A stretch of 64,000 nucleotides of DNA from an uncultured Verrucomicrobiae bacterium (lineage in GTDB: Bacteria; Verrucomicrobiota; Verrucomicrobiia; Chthoniobacterales; UBA10450). This document shows, piece by piece, positions 6,613-42,011 of this stretch. The DNA lies in contig CAVYXA010000001.1 in the NCBI GenBank assembly GCA_963772365.1, positions 992,001 through 1,056,000 of the forward strand, given 5' to 3'. The notes under the pieces are model-generated. The model searched no databases. It was given only the letters and a program-made list of their open reading frames with translations, and had not been told where the DNA came from. Both the position numbers and the translations under genes were made by a program. Every line of letters starts with the position of its first letter. The stretch's first letter is position 1.

Positions 6613-6694
6613 TGTCATGTTGAGCGCAGCGAAACATCTCATTCTATTTCTCTGCAGAAATGATCGGAGATTCTTCGCTTCGCTCAGAATGACA
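6613..6694. repeat. Palindromic REP-like element, family A (TGTCAT.YTGAGC..AGCGAA ... TTCGCTTCGCTCA..ATGACA)
   Basis: Inverted arms TGTCATGTTGAGCGCAGCGAAACATCTC and GAGATTCTTCGCTTCGCTCAGAATGACA. The family recurs across the window. Confidence 0.85.
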
Positions 6695-6839: not shown

Positions 6840-8666
6840 ATGCCAATGCCAGATTCTGAAAAAGTCCAGGCCGCGTGGGCGGCCGTCACGAAAAAGATTG
6901 AAGGCCAAGCCTCAACCAGCGGCAGAAGAGTTGCGATTAAGAGCGATTCGGCAGAGCTGACCCATTCACAGCTCGAAGCACAAGCAAATCAGCTTGCGCA
7001 TCATCTCCGGACTCTGGGCGCGCAAAAGGAGGTTTTGATCGGAATTTGTCTGGAGCGATCGCCTCGTTTTATTTCTACCGCACTCGCTATTCTAAAATCC
7101 GGTGCGGCATATCTCCCGATCGATCCTCGCGATCCAGCGGAACGATTGAAATTCATTGCCAGGGACGCCGCAGTGAAGTTGATCATTACAGATCGACAGT
7201 TCGCGGAGCTTTTTGAGGGTTCCGGCGCAAAAGTCGTCAGTCTCGATGCGGAGCAGAGCACGGTTGCTCAATGCTCAACGGAAGCACTGGAGACAGATAT
7301 TCGACCGGAGGACCTCGCCTACGTGATTTATACATCCGGTTCAACGGGACAACCCAAGGGCGTTGAAATCACACATCGAAATCTCGCAAACCTGGTCGCG
7401 TGGCATGTCCGGGCCTTTCATGTCGATGTTTCCACGCGAGCTACGTTTCAGGCAGGCGTCGGATTCGATGCGGCTGTCTGGGAAATCTGGCCGCACCTTT
7501 CAGCCGGAGCCACAATTTATTTACCTGGTGAATCGACGCGCATGGACGCCGCAGCCCTGCGCGACTGGCTGGTTTCAAATCAAATCACTCTGAGTTTTGT
7601 GCCAACCGCAATCGCCGAACAGTTGCTGGGATTAACCTGGCCGGAAAAAGCTTCTTTGAAATTCCTACTCACTGGCGCCGATACTCTCCATCGGTTTCCC
7701 CCACCCGATCTCCCATTCGCATTCCTAAACAACTACGGCCCTACCGAGTGCACCGTCGTAACTACATCCGGTATTATCCCGCCCTGTTCCAAACCTGATG
7801 GTCTGCCATCCATCGGAGCGCCTATTGAGAATGTTCACGTCAGGATCGTGGACAAGCAATTGCGTGAAGTTCCTGATGGAGATTCCGGCGAAATCTGGAT
7901 CGGCGGCGCAGGCGTTGGGCGCGGGTACCGCAACCGGCCCGAGTTAATGGCAGAAAAGTTTATTGATAACAGCGGCTCGCGATTTTACCGGACCGGCGAT
8001 CTCGGGCGGCGCCTGCCGAATGGGGAGATTGCATTTCTGGGACGCGTTGACGATCAGGTAAAAATTCGCGGGTACCGAGTTGAGCTCGGCGAGATCAATG
8101 CCGTTCTCAATGAACATCCGACTGTTCGCGCGAGCGTTGTAATTCCTCGCGAAGATGTTCCGGGAGAGAAACGCCTCGTCGCCTATGTCGTCTCGGCCAG
8201 CTGTGGAGGGCGCGATCAGCAATGTTTGCGCGAGTGGATTCGAGAACGATTGCCCGATTACATGGAGCCTGCGGCGTTTGTTTGGATGGAGTCGCTGCCA
8301 CTAACTTCAAATGGTAAAATCGATCGCGCGGCATTACCGGTTCCGCAGCTCGATGCAAATGAGAACGAAAGGGAATTCGTCGCGGCCCGGAATCCGATTG
8401 AAGAAGCGCTGGTAGAAATTATCGGCGACGTGTTAAAGGTTCCACGTGTCAGTGTGCACGACGATTTCTTCCAGCTTGGGGCACATTCTCTTCTCGGCGC
8501 CCAAATCGTCGCTCACGTCCGTAATGTTTTCGGCGCGGAGCTAAAGCTGTTGGATGTGTTTGATGCACCGACGGTTGCCCAGCTTTCGGTGCGGGTGGAA
8601 CGCGCATTGACAAATCAGACGAACGGAAACAGTGAAACGCAGCCGGCCCATGCCGCGCTGAATTGA
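6840..8666 (+). CDS. NRPS loading module A-T (predicted Leu)
   Basis: YTSGSTGQPKG, YGPTE, YRTGD, QVKIRGYRVELGEI, NGKIDR, and PCP motif FFQLGAHSLL. Manual specificity code DAWFLGNVVK. Start taken at ATG 6840 (ORF track start 6711). Confidence 0.92.
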   Translation: MPMPDSEKVQAAWAAVTKKIEGQASTSGRRVAIKSDSAELTHSQLEAQANQLAHHLRTLGAQKEVLIGICLERSPRFISTALAILKSGAAYLPIDPRDPAERLKFIARDAAVKLIITDRQFAELFEGSGAKVVSLDAEQSTVAQCSTEALETDIRPEDLAYVIYTSGSTGQPKGVEITHRNLANLVAWHVRAFHVDVSTRATFQAGVGFDAAVWEIWPHLSAGATIYLPGESTRMDAAALRDWLVSNQITLSFVPTAIAEQLLGLTWPEKASLKFLLTGADTLHRFPPPDLPFAFLNNYGPTECTVVTTSGIIPPCSKPDGLPSIGAPIENVHVRIVDKQLREVPDGDSGEIWIGGAGVGRGYRNRPELMAEKFIDNSGSRFYRTGDLGRRLPNGEIAFLGRVDDQVKIRGYRVELGEINAVLNEHPTVRASVVIPREDVPGEKRLVAYVVSASCGGRDQQCLREWIRERLPDYMEPAAFVWMESLPLTSNGKIDRAALPVPQLDANENEREFVAARNPIEEALVEIIGDVLKVPRVSVHDDFFQLGAHSLLGAQIVAHVRNVFGAELKLLDVFDAPTVAQLSVRVERALTNQTNGNSETQPAHAALN

Positions 8667-8681
8667 AACTGGCAGAGCGTA

Positions 8682-9905
8682 ATGGTCACATCAGATGCGA
8701 GCCTGAGTCTCGTTCGATTGCTAGAACAGGAGGTCCTGGCGGACCCTTATCCGCTGTATCGCAGATTGCGTTCGGAAGATCCGGTGCATTGGGACCGTTT
8801 CCTCCAAACCTGGGTCGTCACTCGCTACACCGACGTCATAAACGTCCTGGGCTCTTTTTCCGCCGACCGGACACCAACGCCGGAGCAGCTGTCAACAATG
8901 GGTCTTTCGGCGTTAAACCCAATCGCGAAAGTAATGGTAAAACAGATGTTATTTATGGATGCGCCGGCGCATACTCGATTGCGCGGCCTGGCATCGGCTG
9001 CCTTTACTCCCCAGCGAGTCGCGGCATTGCGTTCACATATTCAAGAGATTGCCGATAATTTGCTCGACAGCGTCCAGGCGCGCGGGCACATGGATGTGAT
9101 TGCCGATTTTGCCGCGCCATTGCCGGCAATTGTCACGGCGGAAATGCTCGGGGTTCCGACCGAAGATCATGTCGATCTTAAAAAGTGGTCGGCTGATTTC
9201 GCCGAAATGCTCGGCAATTTTCAACACAATCCCGATCGCGTCTCGCGCGTCCTGGTAAGCACCAACAGTCTGGTCAATTATTTCCAAAACGCGATCCGCA
9301 AAATGCGAGATCATCCGCAGGAAGGTCTAATCTACTCGTTCATGACCGCGGAAATTAACGGTGACCGCTTAACCGAGGAGGAGATTGTGGCCAATTGCAT
9401 CGTGACAATGGTCGGTGGCCAGGAAACAACAACAAACCTGATTGGCAATGGACTGCTCACGCTACTTCGCAATCGCGAGCAGCTCGAGCAGCTCCGAGAC
9501 ACGCCGCAGTTACTTCAATCCGGTCTGGAAGAGTTGCTGCGTTACGAGAGTCCAAGCCAGCACACCGGTCGCATCGCACGTCAGGATGTCGAGCTCGGTG
9601 GAAAAACGATCCGCAAAGGACAGGCAGTGATGGCGATCATGGCTGCCGCGAATCGCGATCCGGAGCGATTTCCCGAACCGGATCGTCTCATTCTCGACCG
9701 CTCCGACAACAAACATGTGGCGTTTGGCTGGTCGAGTCACTTTTGTTTCGGCGCACCGCTGGCCCGTATCGAAGGACAAATTTCATTTGCAACCATTTTG
9801 CGACGCCTGAAAAATCTGGCGCTCGCGCCCGGACCATTGATCTGGCGGGAGAATTCTGGTCTTCGCGGCCTCACAGCATTGCCGATCACGTTTTCAAAAA
9901 ACTAG
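8682..9905 (+). CDS. Cytochrome P450
   Basis: I-helix GGQETT, ExxR (ELLR), AANRDP and heme-ligand motif FGWSSHFCFG. Confidence 0.95.
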   Translation: MVTSDASLSLVRLLEQEVLADPYPLYRRLRSEDPVHWDRFLQTWVVTRYTDVINVLGSFSADRTPTPEQLSTMGLSALNPIAKVMVKQMLFMDAPAHTRLRGLASAAFTPQRVAALRSHIQEIADNLLDSVQARGHMDVIADFAAPLPAIVTAEMLGVPTEDHVDLKKWSADFAEMLGNFQHNPDRVSRVLVSTNSLVNYFQNAIRKMRDHPQEGLIYSFMTAEINGDRLTEEEIVANCIVTMVGGQETTTNLIGNGLLTLLRNREQLEQLRDTPQLLQSGLEELLRYESPSQHTGRIARQDVELGGKTIRKGQAVMAIMAAANRDPERFPEPDRLILDRSDNKHVAFGWSSHFCFGAPLARIEGQISFATILRRLKNLALAPGPLIWRENSGLRGLTALPITFSKN

Positions 9906-12900
9906 ATGCAGCCGGAAACAAAGAGAGCGGACAAAGCTTCTGAGGTGCTTCGATCTCCCCTGCAGCGATATCGGCAGGCGAAGGCGGTTGCGGCGATTCG
10001 AAAAAGAAAGCAGAACGGCCGGGCGCCGCTTTCCTACAGCCAACGGCAAATCTGGTTGCATTCGCAACTGGCAGGTGACGCCCTGATTTATAACGAACCG
10101 ATCACGATTTATCGGGACGGCGAACTGGACGTTGCCGCATTGGAACGTGCGTTTACCGAAATCGTTCGTCGACATGAAGCGTGGCGAACCACATTTCACT
10201 GGAACGGCGACGAGGGTGTGCAGGTTGTGCACGATGCTCCGGATCGCGTGAAGATTCCGATTGCCGATCTTCGTGGTCATCCAAAAGCGGAAGAGGAAGT
10301 ATTGCGCATCGCAACCGAGGACGCGCACCGACCATTCGATTTAGCAGAAGGTCCGATGTATCGGCTTCGCGTCCTTCAATTGGCGGACGATGAATACCGG
10401 CTTTACATCGCCCTTCACCATATCATTTTTGATGGCGTTTCACTTTATCGCGTGCTGATGCCGGAGTTGCTGGCGCTATATCAAAGTTTTTCGAAAAACG
10501 AATCACCTCAGCTCGACGAATTGCCGATTCAATACGCCGATTACGCCGCCTGGCAGCGCGAATCGATGAAAGAAATTCCGCCAGATCGCCTTTCCTACTG
10601 GGAAAATGCTTTAGCCGATCTGCCAACTGTCGATCTAAAGACAGATCGCCCGCGCCCACCGGTCCAAACCTACGCCGGTGCCATGGAAATGTTTCAGGTC
10701 TCGCATGAAACGAGCGCGGCGCTGAAGGCTTTGGGGCAGGAGCAACATGCTGCACCGTTTGTCGTAATCGGAGCGGCATTCATGACGCTGTTGAATGGTT
10801 GGACAAAACAAGAAGATATCGTCATTGGAGGAATCAGCGGAGGGCGCGAGCGCATCGAAACACTGAATCTGCTGGGCTGTTTCCTCAATACCATCCCGAT
10901 CCGCTGCGCGTTTTCGAAGGAAGATCCTTTTGTCGATCTTCTCTCGCGAACGCGTTCTGCCACGCTGAACGCCCTTTCAAACGAAGTGCCATTCGAACTG
11001 CTGGTGCAAAGATTCGGCCGGGATCGCGATCCAAGCCGCTCACCGCTTTTCCAGATTTTGATCGTCATGGAGCCGCCACTCGAACCGCTTCCCGCCGGGT
11101 GGCGTTTCGCTTACATGGACGTGAAATCCGAGACAACGAAATTCGATCTTCAGCTTGGCTTGGAAGATCGCGACGGCAGATTCGCAGGTAGTTTTATTTA
11201 CAACACAGATTTGTTCGATCGCGAAACAATCGAACCCCTTAAACTGCGCTGGTTAAGGTTGCTCGATCAAATTGCAGCCGCGCCCGCAAAGAGAATCCGG
11301 GAATTAGTCGATACGGTTTGGCAGGAGACAGCGTCGCTTCCTCCGGCGGAATGGAGCGGCACGCGAACGAATTATCCTCGCGATTTAGCTGTCCACCAAG
11401 TATTCGAGCAGCAAGCGCAGCGTACTCCGAATGCTGTCGCTGTGGTTTTTGGCGAATCGCAGTTGAGTTATGCTGAGTTGAATCAGCGGGCGAATCACCT
11501 GGCGCGACGTCTTCAAGCGAGCGGCGTGACGACCGGCGCACCGGTCGGCGTTTGGATGGAGCGATCGCTAGAAATGATTGTCGCGCTATTGGCCGTTCTC
11601 AAAGCTGGTAGCGCCTACGTTCCGCTCGATCCATCCTACCCAGTCGAGCGCCTCAAATTGATGATCGACGACATAGAGACGCCGGTCATTCTCACTCAGC
11701 TAAAGTTCAAAGAGCAGATCGCTGCTCTTAATCAGAAAGCGACGATGATCTGCCTGGACGAAGAAGACTTGTCCATGCAACCAGTACAGATCTTCCACCT
11801 ACGGCCAAGGCGACGGACCTTGCTTACATCATTTACACTTCGGGATCGACTGGGCTGCCAAAGGGAGTTGCCGTGCCTCATCGAGCTATTGTTAGGTTAG
11901 TCAAAGAGACTAATTATGCTTCGTTCTCAAGCGGCGAAACGTTTCTCCAGCTTGCTCCGATTTCATTCGACGCATCTACATTCGAAATCTGGGGGCCTCT
12001 CTTGAATGGAGGCAGACTTGTTGTCATGCCAACCGGATCGTCCTCGCTTCAGGAGATCGGCCGAATCATTGCCGAGCAGCGTGTTACCACATTGTGGCTC
12101 ACCGCCGGCTTGTTCAATGCAATGGTGGACGAGCGCATCGATGATTTGCGTCCGCTACGGCAACTCCTCGCCGGTGGCGACGTTCTTTCCGTCCACCATG
12201 TTCGCAAAGCGATGGCCGCACTGGACAATACGCAGTTGATTAATGGCTACGGCCCGACTGAAAGCACGACTTTCGCCTGTTGCCACATCATTGATCGAAA
12301 CGCGCCCCTTGAGAGTTCGATTCCAATCGGCAAACCGATTGCGAATACTACGGTTTACATTCTCGATGATAATATGAAGCCGGTTCCAATCGGCGTGAGC
12401 GGTGAACTGCACATCGGCGGAGATGGACTGGCACTTGGTTACTGGGGGCGCAAAGATCTGACCGCAGAAAAATTTGTGGTCAATCCCTTCAGCAGCGAAG
12501 ACCGCGCGCCCCTCTACAAAACTGGCGATCTCGCGCGTTGGCGGGCGGATGGCACCATTGAATTTCTTGGCCGCGGAGACAACCAAATCAAATTGCGCGG
12601 ATTTCGCGTCGAGCCTGGCGAAATAGAGGCAGCATTAAAAGAGCAAGATGGCGTCCGCGATTGCGCAGTTTTGCTACGCAAGGAAGCGTCCGGCGACAAG
12701 AAGCTTGTAGCCTATGTCGCAGGCACGACTTCTTCGCAACAGCTGTTCCCTTTGCTGAGAAAATCGCTTCCCGACTACATGATTCCTTCTGCCATTGTGG
12801 TCTTGGCAGTTCTCCCACGTACGGCGAATGGCAAACTTGATCGCGACGCATTGCCAGCTCCAGATTCCGTGGCTAACAAGGATTTTGTCGAACCAAAGAC

Positions 12901-13234
12901 CGCATTGGAGAAGGAGCTTGCGATCATCTGGGCGGGAGTGCTCGGTTTGGACAGCATCGGAACTGCCGATAGCTTTTTCGATCTGGGCGGCCATTCTCTC
13001 GCGGGGCTACGGGCGGCTAATCAGTTATCGGAAAAATTAGGTCAGCGTTTTTCTCCCTCAATTTTTTTTCAAGCACCGACTATCGCTGGCATGGCGGAAT
13101 TGCTGGAAACGAGATTTCCCGGTGCCGTCGCGCGTTGGGTCGGAAAAGTTAAAGAGGATCGGATAACGGGAAGCATGGCACCAGTAACGGCGGTGGATCG
13201 AGGATCACGTCGGGCAAAGAAACCGATTCGCTAG
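9906..13234 (+). CDS. NRPS elongation module C-A-T (predicted Val), split by a one-base frameshift near 11780
   Basis: C motif HHIIFDG (10416-10436). The A-domain N-terminus is in ORF 9906..11900, while DLAYIIYTSGSTGLPKG continues in the frame of ORF 11873..13234. Code DAFWLGGTFK. PCP motif FFDLGGHSL. Confidence 0.9.
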
Positions 13235-13244
13235 GGGCATTTGC

Positions 13245-15806
13245 ATGAATTCACCGCTGCCGAACGCCCCCGCGCTTCAAGATTCCACTTCAGGGGCGAA
13301 GGAGCAGTCCTTAACTAAAGAATCTGTTCTTGAATTTCCGGCGACACTTGCACAACGCCGCTTCTGGTTGCAGCACCAATGGAGTGAGAGCGGTAATCCT
13401 ACTCTCAACCTGACAACTCCCCTTCGCTTACGCGGCTTTCTTAATGCTGACCTGCTCCGGCGCGGCCTGGACCAGCTCATCGCTCGCCATGAAATACTAC
13501 GAACCACCTTCCAGGCGGAGCACGGCGAATTGCTCCAGCTCATTTCTCCGACCCTTCCTATTATCTTGCCATCGATTGAAATCGAAAATCATGCGGCTGA
13601 AAATTATCCCCTTTTTATTGAGAGAATCGCGCGCGAAGAGGCAGAGCAACCTTTCGATACTCGAACCGGTCCGTTGCTGCGCGCCCGTTTGTTTAAGCTG
13701 AACGATCTTGAGCACCTGCTTCTTCTTACAATGCATCGTCTTATTTCCGATGAATCGAGCGCGGAGATAATGGCTCGTGAATTATGCGAGTATTATGCAG
13801 CGCTTTCGGAAGATCGACAGCCATCGCTCCCGGAGTTGGGCATCCAATTTGCCGATTACGCCCATTGGCAGCACGAACGATTGCTTGCCGGTGATTTCGC
13901 CACGCAACAGGAATACTGGAAGACTCAATTAACCGGGGCTGTCCCTGCTCGGCTTCTTCCAGATGATCGATCGCGGTTAGCGGTTGGCCGAGGGCGAAGT
14001 TCAAGCCTCGCGAGGGTCCTGCCTTCTCATCAAGTGGATGCGCTTAAGATGCTCGGTTCACGACACGGAACGGCACCCTTGGTCGTTTTCCTCGCGCTGT
14101 TTGACGTGCTGCTTCATCGATACACTGGTCAATGCGATTTTTTCGTAACGGTTTCGACCCCTAACCGTGAGCGCGAAGATTTCGATTCGATTGTCGGCCC
14201 GCTGGCCAATCCGCTGCTTCTGCGAATCAATTTAAACGGTCGCCCGAATTTTCTGGATGTGCTGCATCGATTGGGTCGCGTCACGCTCGATGCCTTTGCC
14301 AATCAGGAAACACCCTTTGGACTGCTTCTGGATGATTTTCAGGCCTCTCAATTACAAGTCGCTTTCGCATATCAAGCGGCTTCGATGGAAAACCCATTAC
14401 GGATTCCGGACGGGCTAACGATCGAGACGCTGATGTGCGTGAGCGGCGGTCTGGTGCACGATCTAAGCGCGGCAGTCATTGACGGGAAAAATGAGACGCG
14501 CCTGCAAATCGACTATGATCCGGAACGCTTCGACAATGAAACGGTGGAGCGAATGCTTCAAGACTACGCGGATTTGCTGCGAGAGGTAACTCTTGGTCCG
14601 ACACAATCAATTGCTGTATCACCCTCTTCTACATTATTGACCCGGGTTCGAGATCGCTCCCCGAATTCCTTAGAGAAGCGTGCGGCAGCGACCCCAAGGG
14701 TCCGCCCGTATCTGGGTCTGCATCTTCAGCTGATCGATATTTGGGAAGACATTCTCGATGTCCGTGGGATCGGCATCAATGACGATTTCTTCGGACTTGG
14801 CGGCAACTCCCTCCTGGCTTTACGGATGCTGCTTCGGACCGAGCGCATTTGTGGCAAACGAATTCTTCCCGGGTCCTTCGCCAAGAGTTCGACTATCGAA
14901 TTCCTGGCTAACGAGATGGCACGGGAAGCAATCGACGACGCACCCAGCCTTACCGCAGTGCATACGGAAGGAGATCGGACGCCGTTCTTCTATCTTCATG
15001 GCGATCTATTCGGTGGAGGTTTTTACACCCGAAAACTCTCGCAGTCCCTCGGGCTAGATCAGCCGGTTTACGTCCTGCCTCCGCATAATCTCCGTGGATT
15101 ACGCGAAGTTCCGACTGTTGAAGAAATGGCGGCCGCCCATCTGCAGGCATTGCGCTCCGAGCGACCGCATGGGCCGTACATAATAGGCGGATTTTGCCAG
15201 GGCGGTATCGCAGCCTATGAACTGGCACAGCAAATCGTATCAAGCGGCGATACGGTCGAACTTCTTCTTCTCATCGATGTTGGACCGGAAGACAGATTGT
15301 TGGTTGTTCTCCGTCGAATCTGCAGCGCTCTGGCGAAATTGTTTCACTGGGACAGCTTTTCGCAGATAGATCATTTCTCGAAGTGGGTGCTCGTCCGCAC
15401 CAAATTTACCGCCTGGCGTAAATTAAGTACTCGCCGAAAGCTGCAGCTCCTCCTCGGTCAGGTTCGAAAGAAACTCTTTTCGATCTGCAATCTTTTCCGA
15501 TCTGCAAAGAAAGATCATGCTACTTCCTCGGCGCGATCTCCCCAATTCGATGTGCCAGCGTCGTTTCTTTGGGCTTCGGCTGGCTATTCGCCCAAGCTCT
15601 ATTCTGGACCGGTGGCTATTCTTCTTTCTGAAGATCTGCTGGATCACGGTGGCCGCCTCGCTCGACAGTGGCAGCCGCTGGCGCCAAAAGTCATGCTCCA
15701 TTCACTAAAGGGCAGTCATCTGGAATGCATCACCGCACACGTCGACGATCTGGCGGCGACGATAGACAAATGTCTGCGCGATTCTTCGCGAGTTGTTTCC
15801 AAATAA
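13245..15806 (+). CDS. NRPS termination protein: degenerate C (HRxxxDE) - T - TE (Cys nucleophile), no A domain
   Basis: Condensation-fold motifs QRRFW, RHEILRT, QFADYAHWQ with active-site HRLISDE. PCP motif FFGLGGNSLL. TE motif GGFCQGG with His in GSH. Confidence 0.88.
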   Translation: MNSPLPNAPALQDSTSGAKEQSLTKESVLEFPATLAQRRFWLQHQWSESGNPTLNLTTPLRLRGFLNADLLRRGLDQLIARHEILRTTFQAEHGELLQLISPTLPIILPSIEIENHAAENYPLFIERIAREEAEQPFDTRTGPLLRARLFKLNDLEHLLLLTMHRLISDESSAEIMARELCEYYAALSEDRQPSLPELGIQFADYAHWQHERLLAGDFATQQEYWKTQLTGAVPARLLPDDRSRLAVGRGRSSSLARVLPSHQVDALKMLGSRHGTAPLVVFLALFDVLLHRYTGQCDFFVTVSTPNREREDFDSIVGPLANPLLLRINLNGRPNFLDVLHRLGRVTLDAFANQETPFGLLLDDFQASQLQVAFAYQAASMENPLRIPDGLTIETLMCVSGGLVHDLSAAVIDGKNETRLQIDYDPERFDNETVERMLQDYADLLREVTLGPTQSIAVSPSSTLLTRVRDRSPNSLEKRAAATPRVRPYLGLHLQLIDIWEDILDVRGIGINDDFFGLGGNSLLALRMLLRTERICGKRILPGSFAKSSTIEFLANEMAREAIDDAPSLTAVHTEGDRTPFFYLHGDLFGGGFYTRKLSQSLGLDQPVYVLPPHNLRGLREVPTVEEMAAAHLQALRSERPHGPYIIGGFCQGGIAAYELAQQIVSSGDTVELLLLIDVGPEDRLLVVLRRICSALAKLFHWDSFSQIDHFSKWVLVRTKFTAWRKLSTRRKLQLLLGQVRKKLFSICNLFRSAKKDHATSSARSPQFDVPASFLWASAGYSPKLYSGPVAILLSEDLLDHGGRLARQWQPLAPKVMLHSLKGSHLECITAHVDDLAATIDKCLRDSSRVVSK

Positions 15807-15811
15807 ACACC

Positions 15812-16540
15812 ATGTCTGCTGCTATTTCAGGGCAAGCTTGCGCAGAGGGAGTTCGGCGCCACTTGCACGGTGTCGATTCACCGGAGCCTGACGTCCAAAT
15901 CTGGATCGCACATTTAGATTCGCTTGACGCAAGCGACATCGAAAAAATGAGCGTTTCGCTCGATCTGGCTGAATCAAGGCGCGCCGCCGAATTTCGATTT
16001 GCGCAGGATCGACAACGCTACTGTGCAGCCCATGGTCTGCTTCGACATGTACTTGGGGGGATGCTCGGCCAGGAACCGCGCGACATTGTTTTTCAGCATG
16101 AGACTCACGGCAAACCCAAGATTGTTCAACAAACGAAGGATACGCGGAAGCTGCATTTCAATATCTCACATTCAAAGGAATGGGCGCTCTTTGCCGTTTC
16201 ATGGGAACGCGAAGTGGGAATTGATTTGGAAGCCGAAGGGCTATTGCCCGGACACAGCGAGCTGATCGATCTTGCATTGCGCGTCTTTTCACGACCTGAA
16301 TTCGAGAAATGGCAATCTTTGATAAATGAAGAAGCCCGCCGAACCGCGATTCTGCGTGCGTGGGTTCGCAAAGAAGCGTGCATTAAGGCAAGCGGCGAGG
16401 GTCTTCATCTCGAGCTATCGCAAATTGAATTATCCGCTGGTCCCAGGCGATCTCACCTGGGTTCCATCCAAAAAAAGCAGCGGTGGACTGTGCATGATCT
16501 AATTGTTCCCGCGGCTCTGGCGGCTGCGATTGCGGTTTAG
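15812..16540 (+). CDS. Sfp-type 4'-phosphopantetheinyl transferase
   Basis: GKP, FNISHS, VGIDLE and [15 protein letters not shown] motifs. Confidence 0.92.
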
Positions 16541-16565: not shown

Positions 16566-16647
16566 TGCTCGCGAGAGGACTCGAACCTCCACGGGTTTCC
16601 CCATACGGTCCTGAGCCGTACGCGTCTGCCAGTTCCGCCACGCGAGC
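16566..16647 (-). tRNA. tRNA-Leu(CAG), CCA not encoded
   Basis: Reverse complement GCTCGCGTGGCGGAACTGGCAGACGCGTACGGCTCAGGACCGTATGGGGAAACCCGTGGAGGTTCGAGTCCTCTCGCGAGCA: acceptor stem, anticodon arm TACGG-CTCAGGA-CCGTA, long variable arm, GTTCGA T-loop. Confidence 0.97.
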
Positions 16648-21089: not shown

Positions 21090-22374
21090 TTACTTTTCGA
21101 ATCGGATCACGTCGCGCTGAAAATATGGCTGTAGTTTTTCCGGAATCTTGATCGAACCATCCGGCTCTTGATTGCTTTCAATCAGCGCCAGCGAATAGAC
21201 GCGGCAGGGCCAGGCCCGAACCGTTGAGTGTATGGCAAAAACGGTTTTTACCATCGACATCTTTAAAGCGCAGGTTCATCCGGCGCGCTTGAAAGTCTTC
21301 AAAGTTCGAGCAGCTCGACGCTTCCAGATATGCCTGCTGAGCGGGCGACCAGACCTCGATGTCGTATGTCTTGGCCGATCCAAATGTGAGATCGCCGGTG
21401 CACAGCTCGATCACGCGATAGTGCAAACCAAGAAGCTGCAACACGCGCTCGGCATCGGCCGCTAACGATTCCAGCTCGTCATATGATTTTTCTGGCACGC
21501 TGATCTTGACCAGTTCGACCTTGTCGAATTGATGGACCCGAATGATCCCACGCGTTTCGCGTCCAGCGGATCCCGCTTCACGGCGGAAACAGGGCGTATA
21601 AGCAGTGAACTTTTTCGGAAGATCGAGAGCGGCCAGAATTTCTTCCCGATGCAGATTCGTTACCGGCACTTCGGCGGTCGGCACGAGAAAGAACTCGCCG
21701 TTCTCCAAACCATACATGTCGGCCTCGAATTTCGGCAATTGAGTGGTTCCGATCATGCAATCGCGCCGCACTAAAAATGGCGGGCTGACCTCGAGATATC
21801 CATGCTCTCGTGTGTGCAGATCGAGCATGAACTGGATCAGCGAACGTTCCAAACGCGCACCTGCGCCAGTAAAACAGATGAAGCCGCTGCCGCTTAACTT
21901 GGTCGCGCGCTCCAGATCGAGTAGGCCCAATTTTTCGCCGAGCTCGACATGATCGAGAATCTTGTCACCCAGTTCCGGTTTATCGCCCCAGCTCCGGATG
22001 ACTTTGTTATCGCTCGCATCTTTTCCGATCGGTACGGTCTCGTGCGGTAAATTCGGAATTTGAAGCAGAAGATTTTTTTGCACTTCTTCATTTCTCCCGA
22101 TCGCTTCGTTTAGCTCGTCGATGTCCTTGTTGATCTGGCCGACTTCCGCCTGCAGTTGCGAAGTCTCTTCGCCGCGACTCTTCAAAGCGCCGATCTTTTT
22201 GCTCAATTCATTCCGTTGCGCCCGGAACTGCTGCACGTTCGTCTCCTCCACGCGTCGCTGCTTGTCGCAACTCAGCACTTCCGAGATCATGAGATCGTAA
22301 TCCTCTCCGCCGCGCGTGCCCAGGCGTTGCTTAACGAAATCGGGTTTCTCTCGAATCAGACGAATGTCGAGCAT
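21090..22374 (-). CDS. serS: Seryl-tRNA synthetase (one-base frameshift near 21189)
   Basis: MLDIRLIRE, PTAEVP, CFRREAG, HQFDKVE, HTLNGSGLALPR. Removing one G gives AALIESNQEPDGSIKIPEKLQPY...* ending at 21090. Confidence 0.96.
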
Positions 22375-37574: not shown

Positions 37575-37709
37575 TGTCATTCTGAGCACAGCGAAGAATC
37601 TCGAAACATTCGGGCTTTCCTACACCCAAGACGAATGATCGGAGATGTTTCGCTTCGCTCAACATGACAATCATCTCACCTTGTCATTCTGAGCAACGCG
37701 AAGAATCTC
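37575..37709. repeat. Family-A palindrome (37575-37669) plus extra left arm (37682-37709)
   Basis: TGTCATTCTGAGCACAGCGAAGAATCTC...GAGATGTTTCGCTTCGCTCAACATGACA, then TGTCATTCTGAGCAACGCGAAGAATCTC. Confidence 0.85.
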
Positions 37710-41890: not shown

Positions 41891-42011
41891 TGTCATTCTG
41901 AGCGAAGCGAAGAATCTCAAATCGTTTAGTTTCGACCCGTCGAAGAAATGATCAGAGATGTTTCGCTTCGCTCAATTCGCCACAGGACGAATCCGCCGTG
42001 GCGGACATGAC
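41891..42011. repeat. Family-A palindrome whose right arm is interrupted by a 30-bp mini-element (41976-42005)
   Basis: ...TTCGCTTCGCTCAA[TTCGCCACAGGACGAATCCGCCGTGGCGGA]CATGACA, compared with the uninterrupted arm at 37642-37669. Confidence 0.85.

Follow-up and report, generated by a model that had tools for sequence, protein, structure and literature searches.

What does a five-gene nonribosomal peptide synthetase (NRPS) operon of less than 10 kb make, and is it a working member of a family or the remains of one? The operon lies in a 64,000-nt stretch (hereafter, the window) of contig CAVYXA010000001.1 (positions 992,001 to 1,056,000 of the forward strand; GenBank assembly GCA_963772365.1), from an uncultured Verrucomicrobiae bacterium with a genome of 3.35 Mb in 6 contigs, 90% complete. 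The genes encode, in order, a stand-alone adenylation-carrier (A-T) didomain protein, a cytochrome P450, a condensation-adenylation-carrier (C-A-T) module, a protein with an altered condensation domain (C*), a carrier and a thioesterase (C*-T-TE), and a 4'-phosphopantetheinyl transferase (PPTase). The operon belongs to a real, widespread, and uncharacterised small NRPS family, of which the window copy is a reduced variant.

Six plus-strand open reading frames (ORFs) were resolved into the five genes, with intergenic gaps of 15, 0, 10, and 5 nt. The Pfam E-values of the domains ran from 1e-91 to 4e-7, and the operon is therefore not a chance arrangement. ORF calls and Pfam agreed with the initial annotation of five packed, co-oriented genes with their own PPTase, and Pfam and motif inspection with its two A domains, three carrier domains, and embedded P450. 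No defect was seen in the A-domain core motifs, in the acid-alcohol pair or haem Cys of the P450, in the HHIIFDG motif of the first condensation domain (C1), or in the carrier Ser of any of the three T domains (LGAHSL, LGGHSL, and GGNSL).

The A-T/P450 core and its distribution

Relatives of the P450 were abundant: 7929 of 8000 scored candidates reached E ≤ 1e-100, with other P450s counted in, and the best 120, the query set aside, were 82–89% identical. The closest named relatives were metagenome-assembled genomes of Chthoniobacterales. GTDB genomes were scanned for P450 relatives, which gave 262 stretches; locus counts use the best 80 of these, 26 from Chthoniobacterales-type Verrucomicrobiota (P450 identity 75–86%) and 54 from Acidobacteriota (65–73%). 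The A-T gene stood directly upstream of the P450 in 26/26 and 48/54 loci, respectively (within 2 kb in 52/54 of the acidobacterial ones).

The specificity codes in the window were DAWFLGNVV(K) for the first A domain (A1) and DAFWLGGTF(K) for the second (A2), which we take, with the code positions, from the Stachelhaus tables to denote Leu and Val. The Leu code DAWFLGNVV was found in 72 of the 77 readable loci, and the other 5 differed at one position. The downstream A domains carried varying codes (Val, Gly-type, or other), with the Val code present in 23/26 Chthoniobacterales loci. Because the pairing is invariant and the code near-constant while downstream codes vary, the Leu A-T/P450 pair was regarded as the fixed core. 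It is common to Chthoniobacterales and Acidobacteria and is neither unique nor a relic.

Intact orthologous operons are known in four architectures. Five-gene synteny, which the initial annotation had named as a check, was conserved with intact genes in other genomes, and the family is thus not a decaying relic; nor is the architecture confined to Verrucomicrobiota, since Acidobacteria have the same Leu A-T/P450 core. Within the window's own family, the P450 was found in 32/301 genomes, 14/132 high-quality genomes, and 11/36 genera, and was not found in the single same-genus genome, G001. These tallies include genomes marked unpublished (G003, G008, G283, and G297), on which no conclusion rests.

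Variants of the cassette were also observed. Many Acidobacteria carry an in-frame fusion of the P450 to the C-A-T-TE or A-T-TE that follows it (L052-L056, L058, L063, L065, L066, L073, L075, L076, L079, L089, and L096). A second P450 clade from the same family (65–67% identity; L105:6239-12135, L104:8265-15393, and L106:5118-12438) has a single A domain per locus, the layout A-T / P450 / C-T-TE or C-C-T-TE, and a Cys-type TE. A search of plasmids returned one match at E ≤ 1e-80, on the Nostoc plasmid NZ_CP026694.1, with a P450 46% identical and a different layout; the cluster there (L101:10609-26898) holds a vanadium haloperoxidase, an AMP-binding protein, a P450, a polyketide synthase (PKS), an NRPS, and a transporter of the major facilitator superfamily.

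The best solved relatives of the P450 were BioI (3EJB, E 5e-85) and PksS (E 1e-75), enzymes whose substrates are carrier-bound or on an assembly line. Mean column identity was 78% over 34 homologues from two phyla, and E248-T249, E284/R287, and C355 were invariant in all 34 sequences, so that the acid-alcohol pair, the ExxR motif, and the haem Cys are intact. No redox partner gene was present within the operon. Since the A-T gene adjoins the P450 near-invariantly and the Leu code is near-constant, the P450 likely acts on carrier-bound Leu; such a substrate agrees with the gene pairing as well as with the kinship to BioI. The initial annotation had pointed to beta-hydroxylation of carrier-bound amino acids by P450s of comparable systems. 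Its starting point, a P450 beside a stand-alone A-T protein, holds, but beta-hydroxylation itself would be only an analogy, the enzyme being closest to BioI and PksS.

The terminal gene: module loss and the cysteine thioesterase

The C* domain has HRLISDE at the position of the canonical HHxxxDG motif, with Arg in place of the catalytic second His and Glu in place of Gly. The best homologues of the last gene were taken as a set of 57 (P0002-P0058), in which the C motif was HHxxxDG in 53, HRxxxDE in 2, and HHxxxEG in 1, and 1 had no motif. Between C and T, 47/57 carried an A-like region of 329–423 aa, which lacked the P-loop, YGPTE, and catalytic Lys (14 inspected in alignment) and had a median identity of 56%, against 64% for C and for T-TE. 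This dead A region before the third carrier (T3) is deleted in the window.

Trees were built from A1, P450, C1, and A2 of 31 loci (FastTree, and a fast tree with SH-aLRT). The window fell in a clade of 15 loci (FastTree 0.85; SH-aLRT 84), all 15 with a damaged third module: the C domain was deleted in 11 and its catalytic His lost in 4. The 11 comprised nine C-A-T-T-TE loci, seven of them without the last carrier Ser (L022 and L023 keep it), and two C-A-T-TE loci. The His-less motifs were HRLISDE (window and L109), PSLVADD, and HGAVADS, and these domains clustered as a single group with long branches, inside the canonical C domains of orthologous operons (0.99; X domains were not in the tree). 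Full-length C* matched LCL domains at E 5e-54 and X domains at E 2e-37 and 8e-36.

Because C* nests among canonical C domains, because close relatives have deleted the domain, and because the catalytic His is lost, C* is on sequence grounds a derivative of the canonical C domain of a third module, expendable in close relatives, probably unable to condense, and likely a catalytically dead remnant. A docking or hand-over role is possible. In kistamicin, the change from HHxxxDG to HRxxxDE is described as inactivating a C-type domain (PMC6565677). The C-dead A-T-TE form of the orthologues resembles module 3 of the cystobactamid synthetase CysK and probably yields a tripeptide. In the ancestral operon, the third module (C, dead A, T, and TE) would have been functional and was probably loaded in trans for a tripeptide, a step that the window's clade appears to have lost.

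In L051, L059, L064, L067, L068, L070, L072, L078, L081, L085, L104, and L106, C domains without the second His (HQ, HL, or HR) directly followed a P450 of this family, lay near it, or were fused to it. They grouped apart from the window C* and are possible interface domains.

Two unusual active sites had been noted in the terminal protein. Both HRLISDE and GFCQG were seen, but only the Cys-type TE is a family trait; HRxxxDE is confined to the 2/57 homologues above, and the closest relatives have deleted that domain. The TE nucleophile was Cys in 21/21 Chthoniobacterales loci with the TE in view, whether the third module was present or not, while many acidobacterial TEs, including those in polysaccharide loci, have Ser instead. 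For residue counts, 56 of 63 proteins were chosen for the Cys motif, so that Cys in 56/56 holds by construction. Asp at position I, 27 residues after Cys, was found in 56/56 and His in 54/56.

The TE model had a mean predicted local distance difference test score (pLDDT) of 90.7. The top rows of the fold search were the NocB, Pks13, and AB3403 TEs (Z ~21–22); AB3403 (4ZXH) was tied with the top rows at Z 20.9 and a root-mean-square deviation of 3.9 over 209 residues. ObiF1 and SulM were not in the best 50 rows, which does not exclude similarity. The TE motif reads Phe-Cys-Gln, against Gln-Cys-Asn in SulM. In ObiF1 and SulM, the Asp of the triad is described as standing at position II, and position I of ObiF1 is Gly (PMC6668435, PMC11298585); Asp placed at this position of ObiF1 is reported to block or impair loading (PMC6668435), and the AB3403 TE is given as having a Cys nucleophile with a position-I Asp (PMC11298585).

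Since the position-I Asp is present and the predicted last residue, Val, has no beta-nucleophile, release as a beta-lactone is improbable for the window's clade. The acyl group may stay reactive in a Cys thioester, which would suit ring closure through the free amine or passage to an external acceptor. Of the unusual release chemistry suggested in the initial annotation, the conserved Cys remains; the position-I Asp is ordinary, and there was no sign of an ObiF1/SulM-type four-membered ring.

Proposed pathway and alternatives

The reading that we favour, with about even confidence, is a two-residue line in which Leu would be loaded, oxidised on the first carrier (T1), joined to Val, and released at the Cys-type TE, probably as a cyclic dipeptide, with C* as a dead remnant or passive dock. 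All chemical steps are predicted from the observed genes, motifs, conservation, and module-loss series. The PPTase would prime the three carriers, carrier priming being the established function of its family. A1 is predicted from its code to activate Leu onto T1, and the P450 would hydroxylate the T1-bound Leu with redox partners of the host, on the beta carbon about as probably as at the other carbons or by N-oxidation taken together. C1, which has the canonical motif, would join the oxidised Leu to Val on the second carrier (T2). The dipeptide may then pass straight to Cys651 or arrive there through thioester exchange over C*-T3, where C* would only dock. Attack of the free N-terminal amine on the Cys thioester would give cyclo(hydroxyleucine-valine), which is the tentative first choice among release modes; transfer to an outside acceptor is somewhat less probable, and hydrolysis slightly less so again. 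An oxidised Leu-Val-derived product, as first proposed, is still the best reading, with its chemistry at the level of prediction.

Several observations weigh against this reading. The P450 is at most a candidate for the known amino-acid beta-hydroxylase group: no entry named OxyD, NovI, NikQ, or P450sky was among the best 60 of 400 structure matches, and OxyD and P450sky do have solved structures. A second Asp (28 residues before His) is present in 54/56 TEs, near the ObiF1/SulM position, where Asp stands 30 residues before His. HRxxxDE persists in three sequences (the window, P0002/L109, and P0057) with the T3 Ser intact; C* of the window and L109 are 54% identical and their TEs 57%, and relaxed selection is not clear in this sub-branch. 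Support for the 15-locus clade is moderate, and the C-A-T gene of this copy is frameshifted in the assembly.

The frameshift, one missing base in the linker before the A3 motif, bears on whether the window copy is a decaying pseudogene cluster with no product. The site was read through in one frame in 24 of the 27 other Chthoniobacterales-type loci; two were broken nearby and one was unreadable. Both broken loci carry further breaks, breaks of this gene in other genomes fall at scattered positions, and L026, a 96%-identical relative of one of the two, L047, has a continuous gene and none of the several breaks of L047. In the window, the essential gene serS (minus strand, 21100-21200, 4.6 kb from the operon) was also frameshifted near its 3' end: its 398-aa ORF matches 1-395 of 418 model positions, and the C-terminus continues in another frame. 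Shifts were found in 3/27 control genes of the assembly (one ambiguous) and in 0/13 of a second set. Because 24/27 orthologous loci are continuous and serS is shifted as well, the frameshift is probably an assembly error. Programmed frameshifting was ruled out, the orthologues being continuous at the site. A pseudogene would account for a central frameshift together with a His-less C*, for the low G+C content at third codon positions (0.50–0.60, with 4/6 ORF stretches falling under the 5th percentile in a set of 924 long ORFs), and for the absence of the cluster P450 from G001 (95% complete). Yet every other catalytic motif is intact and, with the shifted serS and controls and the scattered breaks elsewhere, makes this explanation highly improbable.

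Two further explanations give C* a working role. As an independently evolved, functional X-domain-like dock, it would recruit the P450 to the dipeptide on T3, and oxidation would follow condensation. HRLISDES matches the kistamicin X-domain motif HRIAADEES, the two coordinated changes are kept in the three sequences named above, and the second His is missing in 21/106 C domains of the cassette loci, a dozen of which are free C domains beside the P450. The P450 also has PTED where Oxy enzymes have PxDD, but BioI has PEED, so this motif does not discriminate. C* nests in the canonical C domains of its own operon and matches LCL better than X domains; the Arg-rich helix end of X domains, which has a role in P450 binding, reads GARRAGR there and ALSEDR in C*; and the P450 is 80–86% identical in relatives entirely without C*. 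A functional dock of this kind is improbable. The predicted complex of C* and P450 scored 0.00 in two runs and was used neither for nor against binding. With a similarly low probability, the third module would still be active: T3 would receive (hydroxy)leucine or valine in trans, C* would condense without its His, and the TE would close a beta-lactone on a C-terminal beta-hydroxyleucine. The ancestral C-dead A-T-TE order matches module 3 of the cystobactamid synthetase CysK, described as having an inactive A domain and being loaded in trans from a stand-alone A-T modified by an oxygenase (PMC7966384); loss of the second His is reported not always to abolish C activity (PMC11546977); and T3 keeps its Ser, as the TE does its Cys and second Asp. 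This reading suits the full-length outer lineages more than it does the window. The position-I Asp is that of AB3403, not the Gly of ObiF1; 11 close relatives without that C domain keep the same Cys-type TE; and no CysB/SyrC/CmaE-like shuttle gene was found among the operon genes and those flanking it, though the remainder of the genome was not searched for one.

A more serious alternative, though still an unlikely one, is that no free metabolite is made and the TE moves the oxidised Leu-Val onto a hydroxyl or an amine in a surface polysaccharide repeat unit or a lipid-linked sugar. Five Wzy-pathway markers were sought within 10 kb, and at least one was found in 43/54 acidobacterial loci and at least two in 31/54; a GNAT-like gene was present in 22 acidobacterial loci. 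A Wzx-like flippase gene stands directly upstream in the same orientation in 7/26 Chthoniobacterales loci, all outside the reduced clade, and in L110. L104, from the window's family, lies between polysaccharide genes and phosphonate-pathway genes (phosphoenolpyruvate mutase, a thiamine pyrophosphate enzyme, and an aminotransferase). A precedent is FrsA-TE, described as transesterifying an acyl-hydroxyleucine onto an outside acceptor (PMC7794379). Against transfer, the Wzy markers were found in 0/26 Chthoniobacterales loci, no glycan gene flanks the window operon, and the flippase orthologue of the window genome lies ~430 kb away, within a polysaccharide locus of its own. By their domain content, the NRPS proteins belong to the cytoplasm, the operon has no membrane acyltransferase, and many acidobacterial TEs of polysaccharide loci have Ser, not Cys. 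The polysaccharide link is thus real for the family and weak for the window copy. A wider proposal is slightly more doubtful still: the Leu-loading P450 cassette, common to two phyla that rank among the most abundant in soil, would be a new route for decorating surface polysaccharide with oxidised-leucine peptides, the Chthoniobacterales Cys-type TE would be the transferase, the third module would have been remodelled stepwise, and the window's branch would have reinvented HRxxxDE as a non-catalytic dock. The two-residue line with release at the Cys-type TE remains the preferred reading.

In the polysaccharide loci themselves, the Wzy-type locus of the window genome (L102:16687-L103:16572) holds the flippase orthologue, which is frameshifted there, and has remnants of type I restriction-modification inserted near a sugar transferase. 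An unannotated protein of ~390 aa (L090:6760-7932 and 21 other acidobacterial loci), GNAT-like by language-model features, adjoins A-T/P450, in some loci with just a PPTase and neither C nor TE.

Genomic setting and comparison with known systems

The features of the operon and its borders are collected in Table 1.

Table 1. Positions of the operon genes, their domains, and the bordering features in the window.
Feature	Position	Strand	Remarks
REP-like (repetitive extragenic palindromic) repeated palindrome	6613..6694	.	Upstream of operon; left boundary, not specific to cluster
Stand-alone A-T didomain	6840..8666	+	Likely start ATG 6840; frame open from GTG 6711; Pfam AMP-binding and PP-binding; carrier Ser ~8487
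Cytochrome P450	8682..9905	+	Pfam p450; I-helix GGQETT; haem Cys355 in FGWSSHFCFG
C-A-T module	9906..13234	+	HHIIFDG at 10416; carrier Ser ~12995; ORFs 9906-11900 and 11873-13234
1-nt frameshift (one base missing)	11770..11795	+	Linker before A3 motif; shift near 11775-11790; splits C-A-T gene into two ORFs; probably an assembly error
C*-T-TE gene	13245..15806	+	From the six-ORF call; GFCQG in TE
C* domain	13245..14615	+	HRLISDE at 13734-13754; catalytic second His to Arg, Gly to Glu
Third carrier domain T3	14700..14910	+	GGNSL, Ser ~14808
Type I thioesterase	14960..15806	+	Cys651, Asp678 (position I), His825; second conserved Asp797 after post-lid strand
Sfp/HetI-like 4'-phosphopantetheinyl transferase	15812..16540	+	Likely start ATG 15812
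tRNA-Leu(CAG)	16566..16647	-	Adjoins operon end; right boundary of cluster

The flanks are unrelated to the operon, with lipoprotein-like and VPS10/BNR genes on the left and tRNA-Leu, a tetratricopeptide repeat (TPR) gene, and bamD on the right. In G001, tRNA-Leu(CAG) likewise follows the TPR gene, and the left and right flanks lie on separate contigs, each adjoining a tRNA. An insertion site at tRNA-Leu was not demonstrated by the G001 flanks, and the related loci are not located at tRNA-Leu. The REP-like palindrome occurs 4 times in the window, where 0 would be expected (further sites at 37576-37709 and 41892-41918), has 69 matches genome-wide with ≤3 mismatches, and shows a hairpin z of -4.6. 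A secreted protease-like gene (F21) and the trxB-GT4-F40 block were tried as cluster parts and rejected; they recur beside the clusters of relatives and lie elsewhere in the window genome. In another genome (G020), the Leu-Val operon is directly followed by a second PKS-NRPS cluster (L107:17704-L108:12962), which includes hydroxyacyl-CoA and acyl-CoA dehydrogenases.

Both Chthoniobacterales and Acidobacteria abound in soil, yet to our knowledge their chemistry is almost unexplored. The core described here is a large P450 family with a near-invariant Leu-loading partner, for which no described function was found. Because the operon is smaller than 10 kb, has its own PPTase, and has intact orthologues in four architectures, its chemistry is directly testable. 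The series from canonical C with dead A, through His-less C and deleted C, to loss of the carrier Ser makes a clear case of NRPS module loss, in which the X-domain motif is seen to arise anew from an ordinary C domain. Attachment of the product to surface polysaccharide, if it does occur, would represent a type of cell-surface chemistry not yet described.

The initial annotation did not recognise the operon as a characterised cluster, and neither did we: NCBIfam models of characterised NRPS clusters (solanimycin SolG/SolI, aureusimine AusA, and myxochelin MxcG were compared) scored far below cut-off (SolG 438 vs 2200, SolI 138 vs 850, AusA 382 vs 2500), and no description was found in the literature searched, with subscription journals and MIBiG outside the search.

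NovH/NovI, NikP1/NikQ, and BpsD/OxyD are systems of a stand-alone A-T with a P450. As in these, a free A-T didomain adjoins the P450, the pairing is invariant, and oxidation of a carrier-bound amino acid is likely; unlike them, the window has a BioI/PksS-like P450, no type II TE, no second Leu-type A domain that could activate a released amino acid again, and an acceptor module directly next. PlyR, which was proposed for 3-hydroxyleucine, is described as NikQ-like (PMC3943440). With CysH/CysJ/CysB/CysK, the family shares a stand-alone A-T, an oxygenase that would act on it, and, in full-length orthologues, an inactive-A module. A functional C, an A that is inactive or missing, a live T, and a stand-alone A-T occur together in 47 homologues and not in the window, where the C domain has lost its His; the window also differs in having no shuttle, a P450 for the dioxygenase, and the dead A deleted. 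SyrB1/SyrC of syringomycin is named as a comparable system (PMC7966384, PMC8748450).

The glycopeptide X domain (Tcp12, kistamicin) resembles C* in its HRxxxDE motif within a C-fold domain of a TE-bearing terminal protein and in its P450-containing cluster, but C* is of separate origin, stands in the order C*-T-TE and not T-X-TE, and is dispensable in close relatives. GliP, a line with two A and three T domains, is described as making a diketopiperazine (PMC11610984). This fungal enzyme (gliotoxin) shares these domain counts and a final C-like domain with T, but its CT-T3 itself cyclises and it has no TE; no homology is claimed.

The TEs of ObiF1 (obafluorin) and SulM (sulfazecin) likewise have a GxCxG nucleophile and serve small-peptide lines, but they have a position-II Asp and need a beta-nucleophile on the last residue, whereas the window has a position-I Asp and a predicted last Val. 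Judged by its sequence, the operon is not an ObiF1/SulM-type TE system, nor is its C* an X domain by descent. AB3403 of Acinetobacter baumannii is a complete C-A-T-TE module of uncharacterised function, with no P450 cassette known for it, yet it has in common with the window operon a terminal type I TE, the Cys nucleophile, and the position-I Asp.

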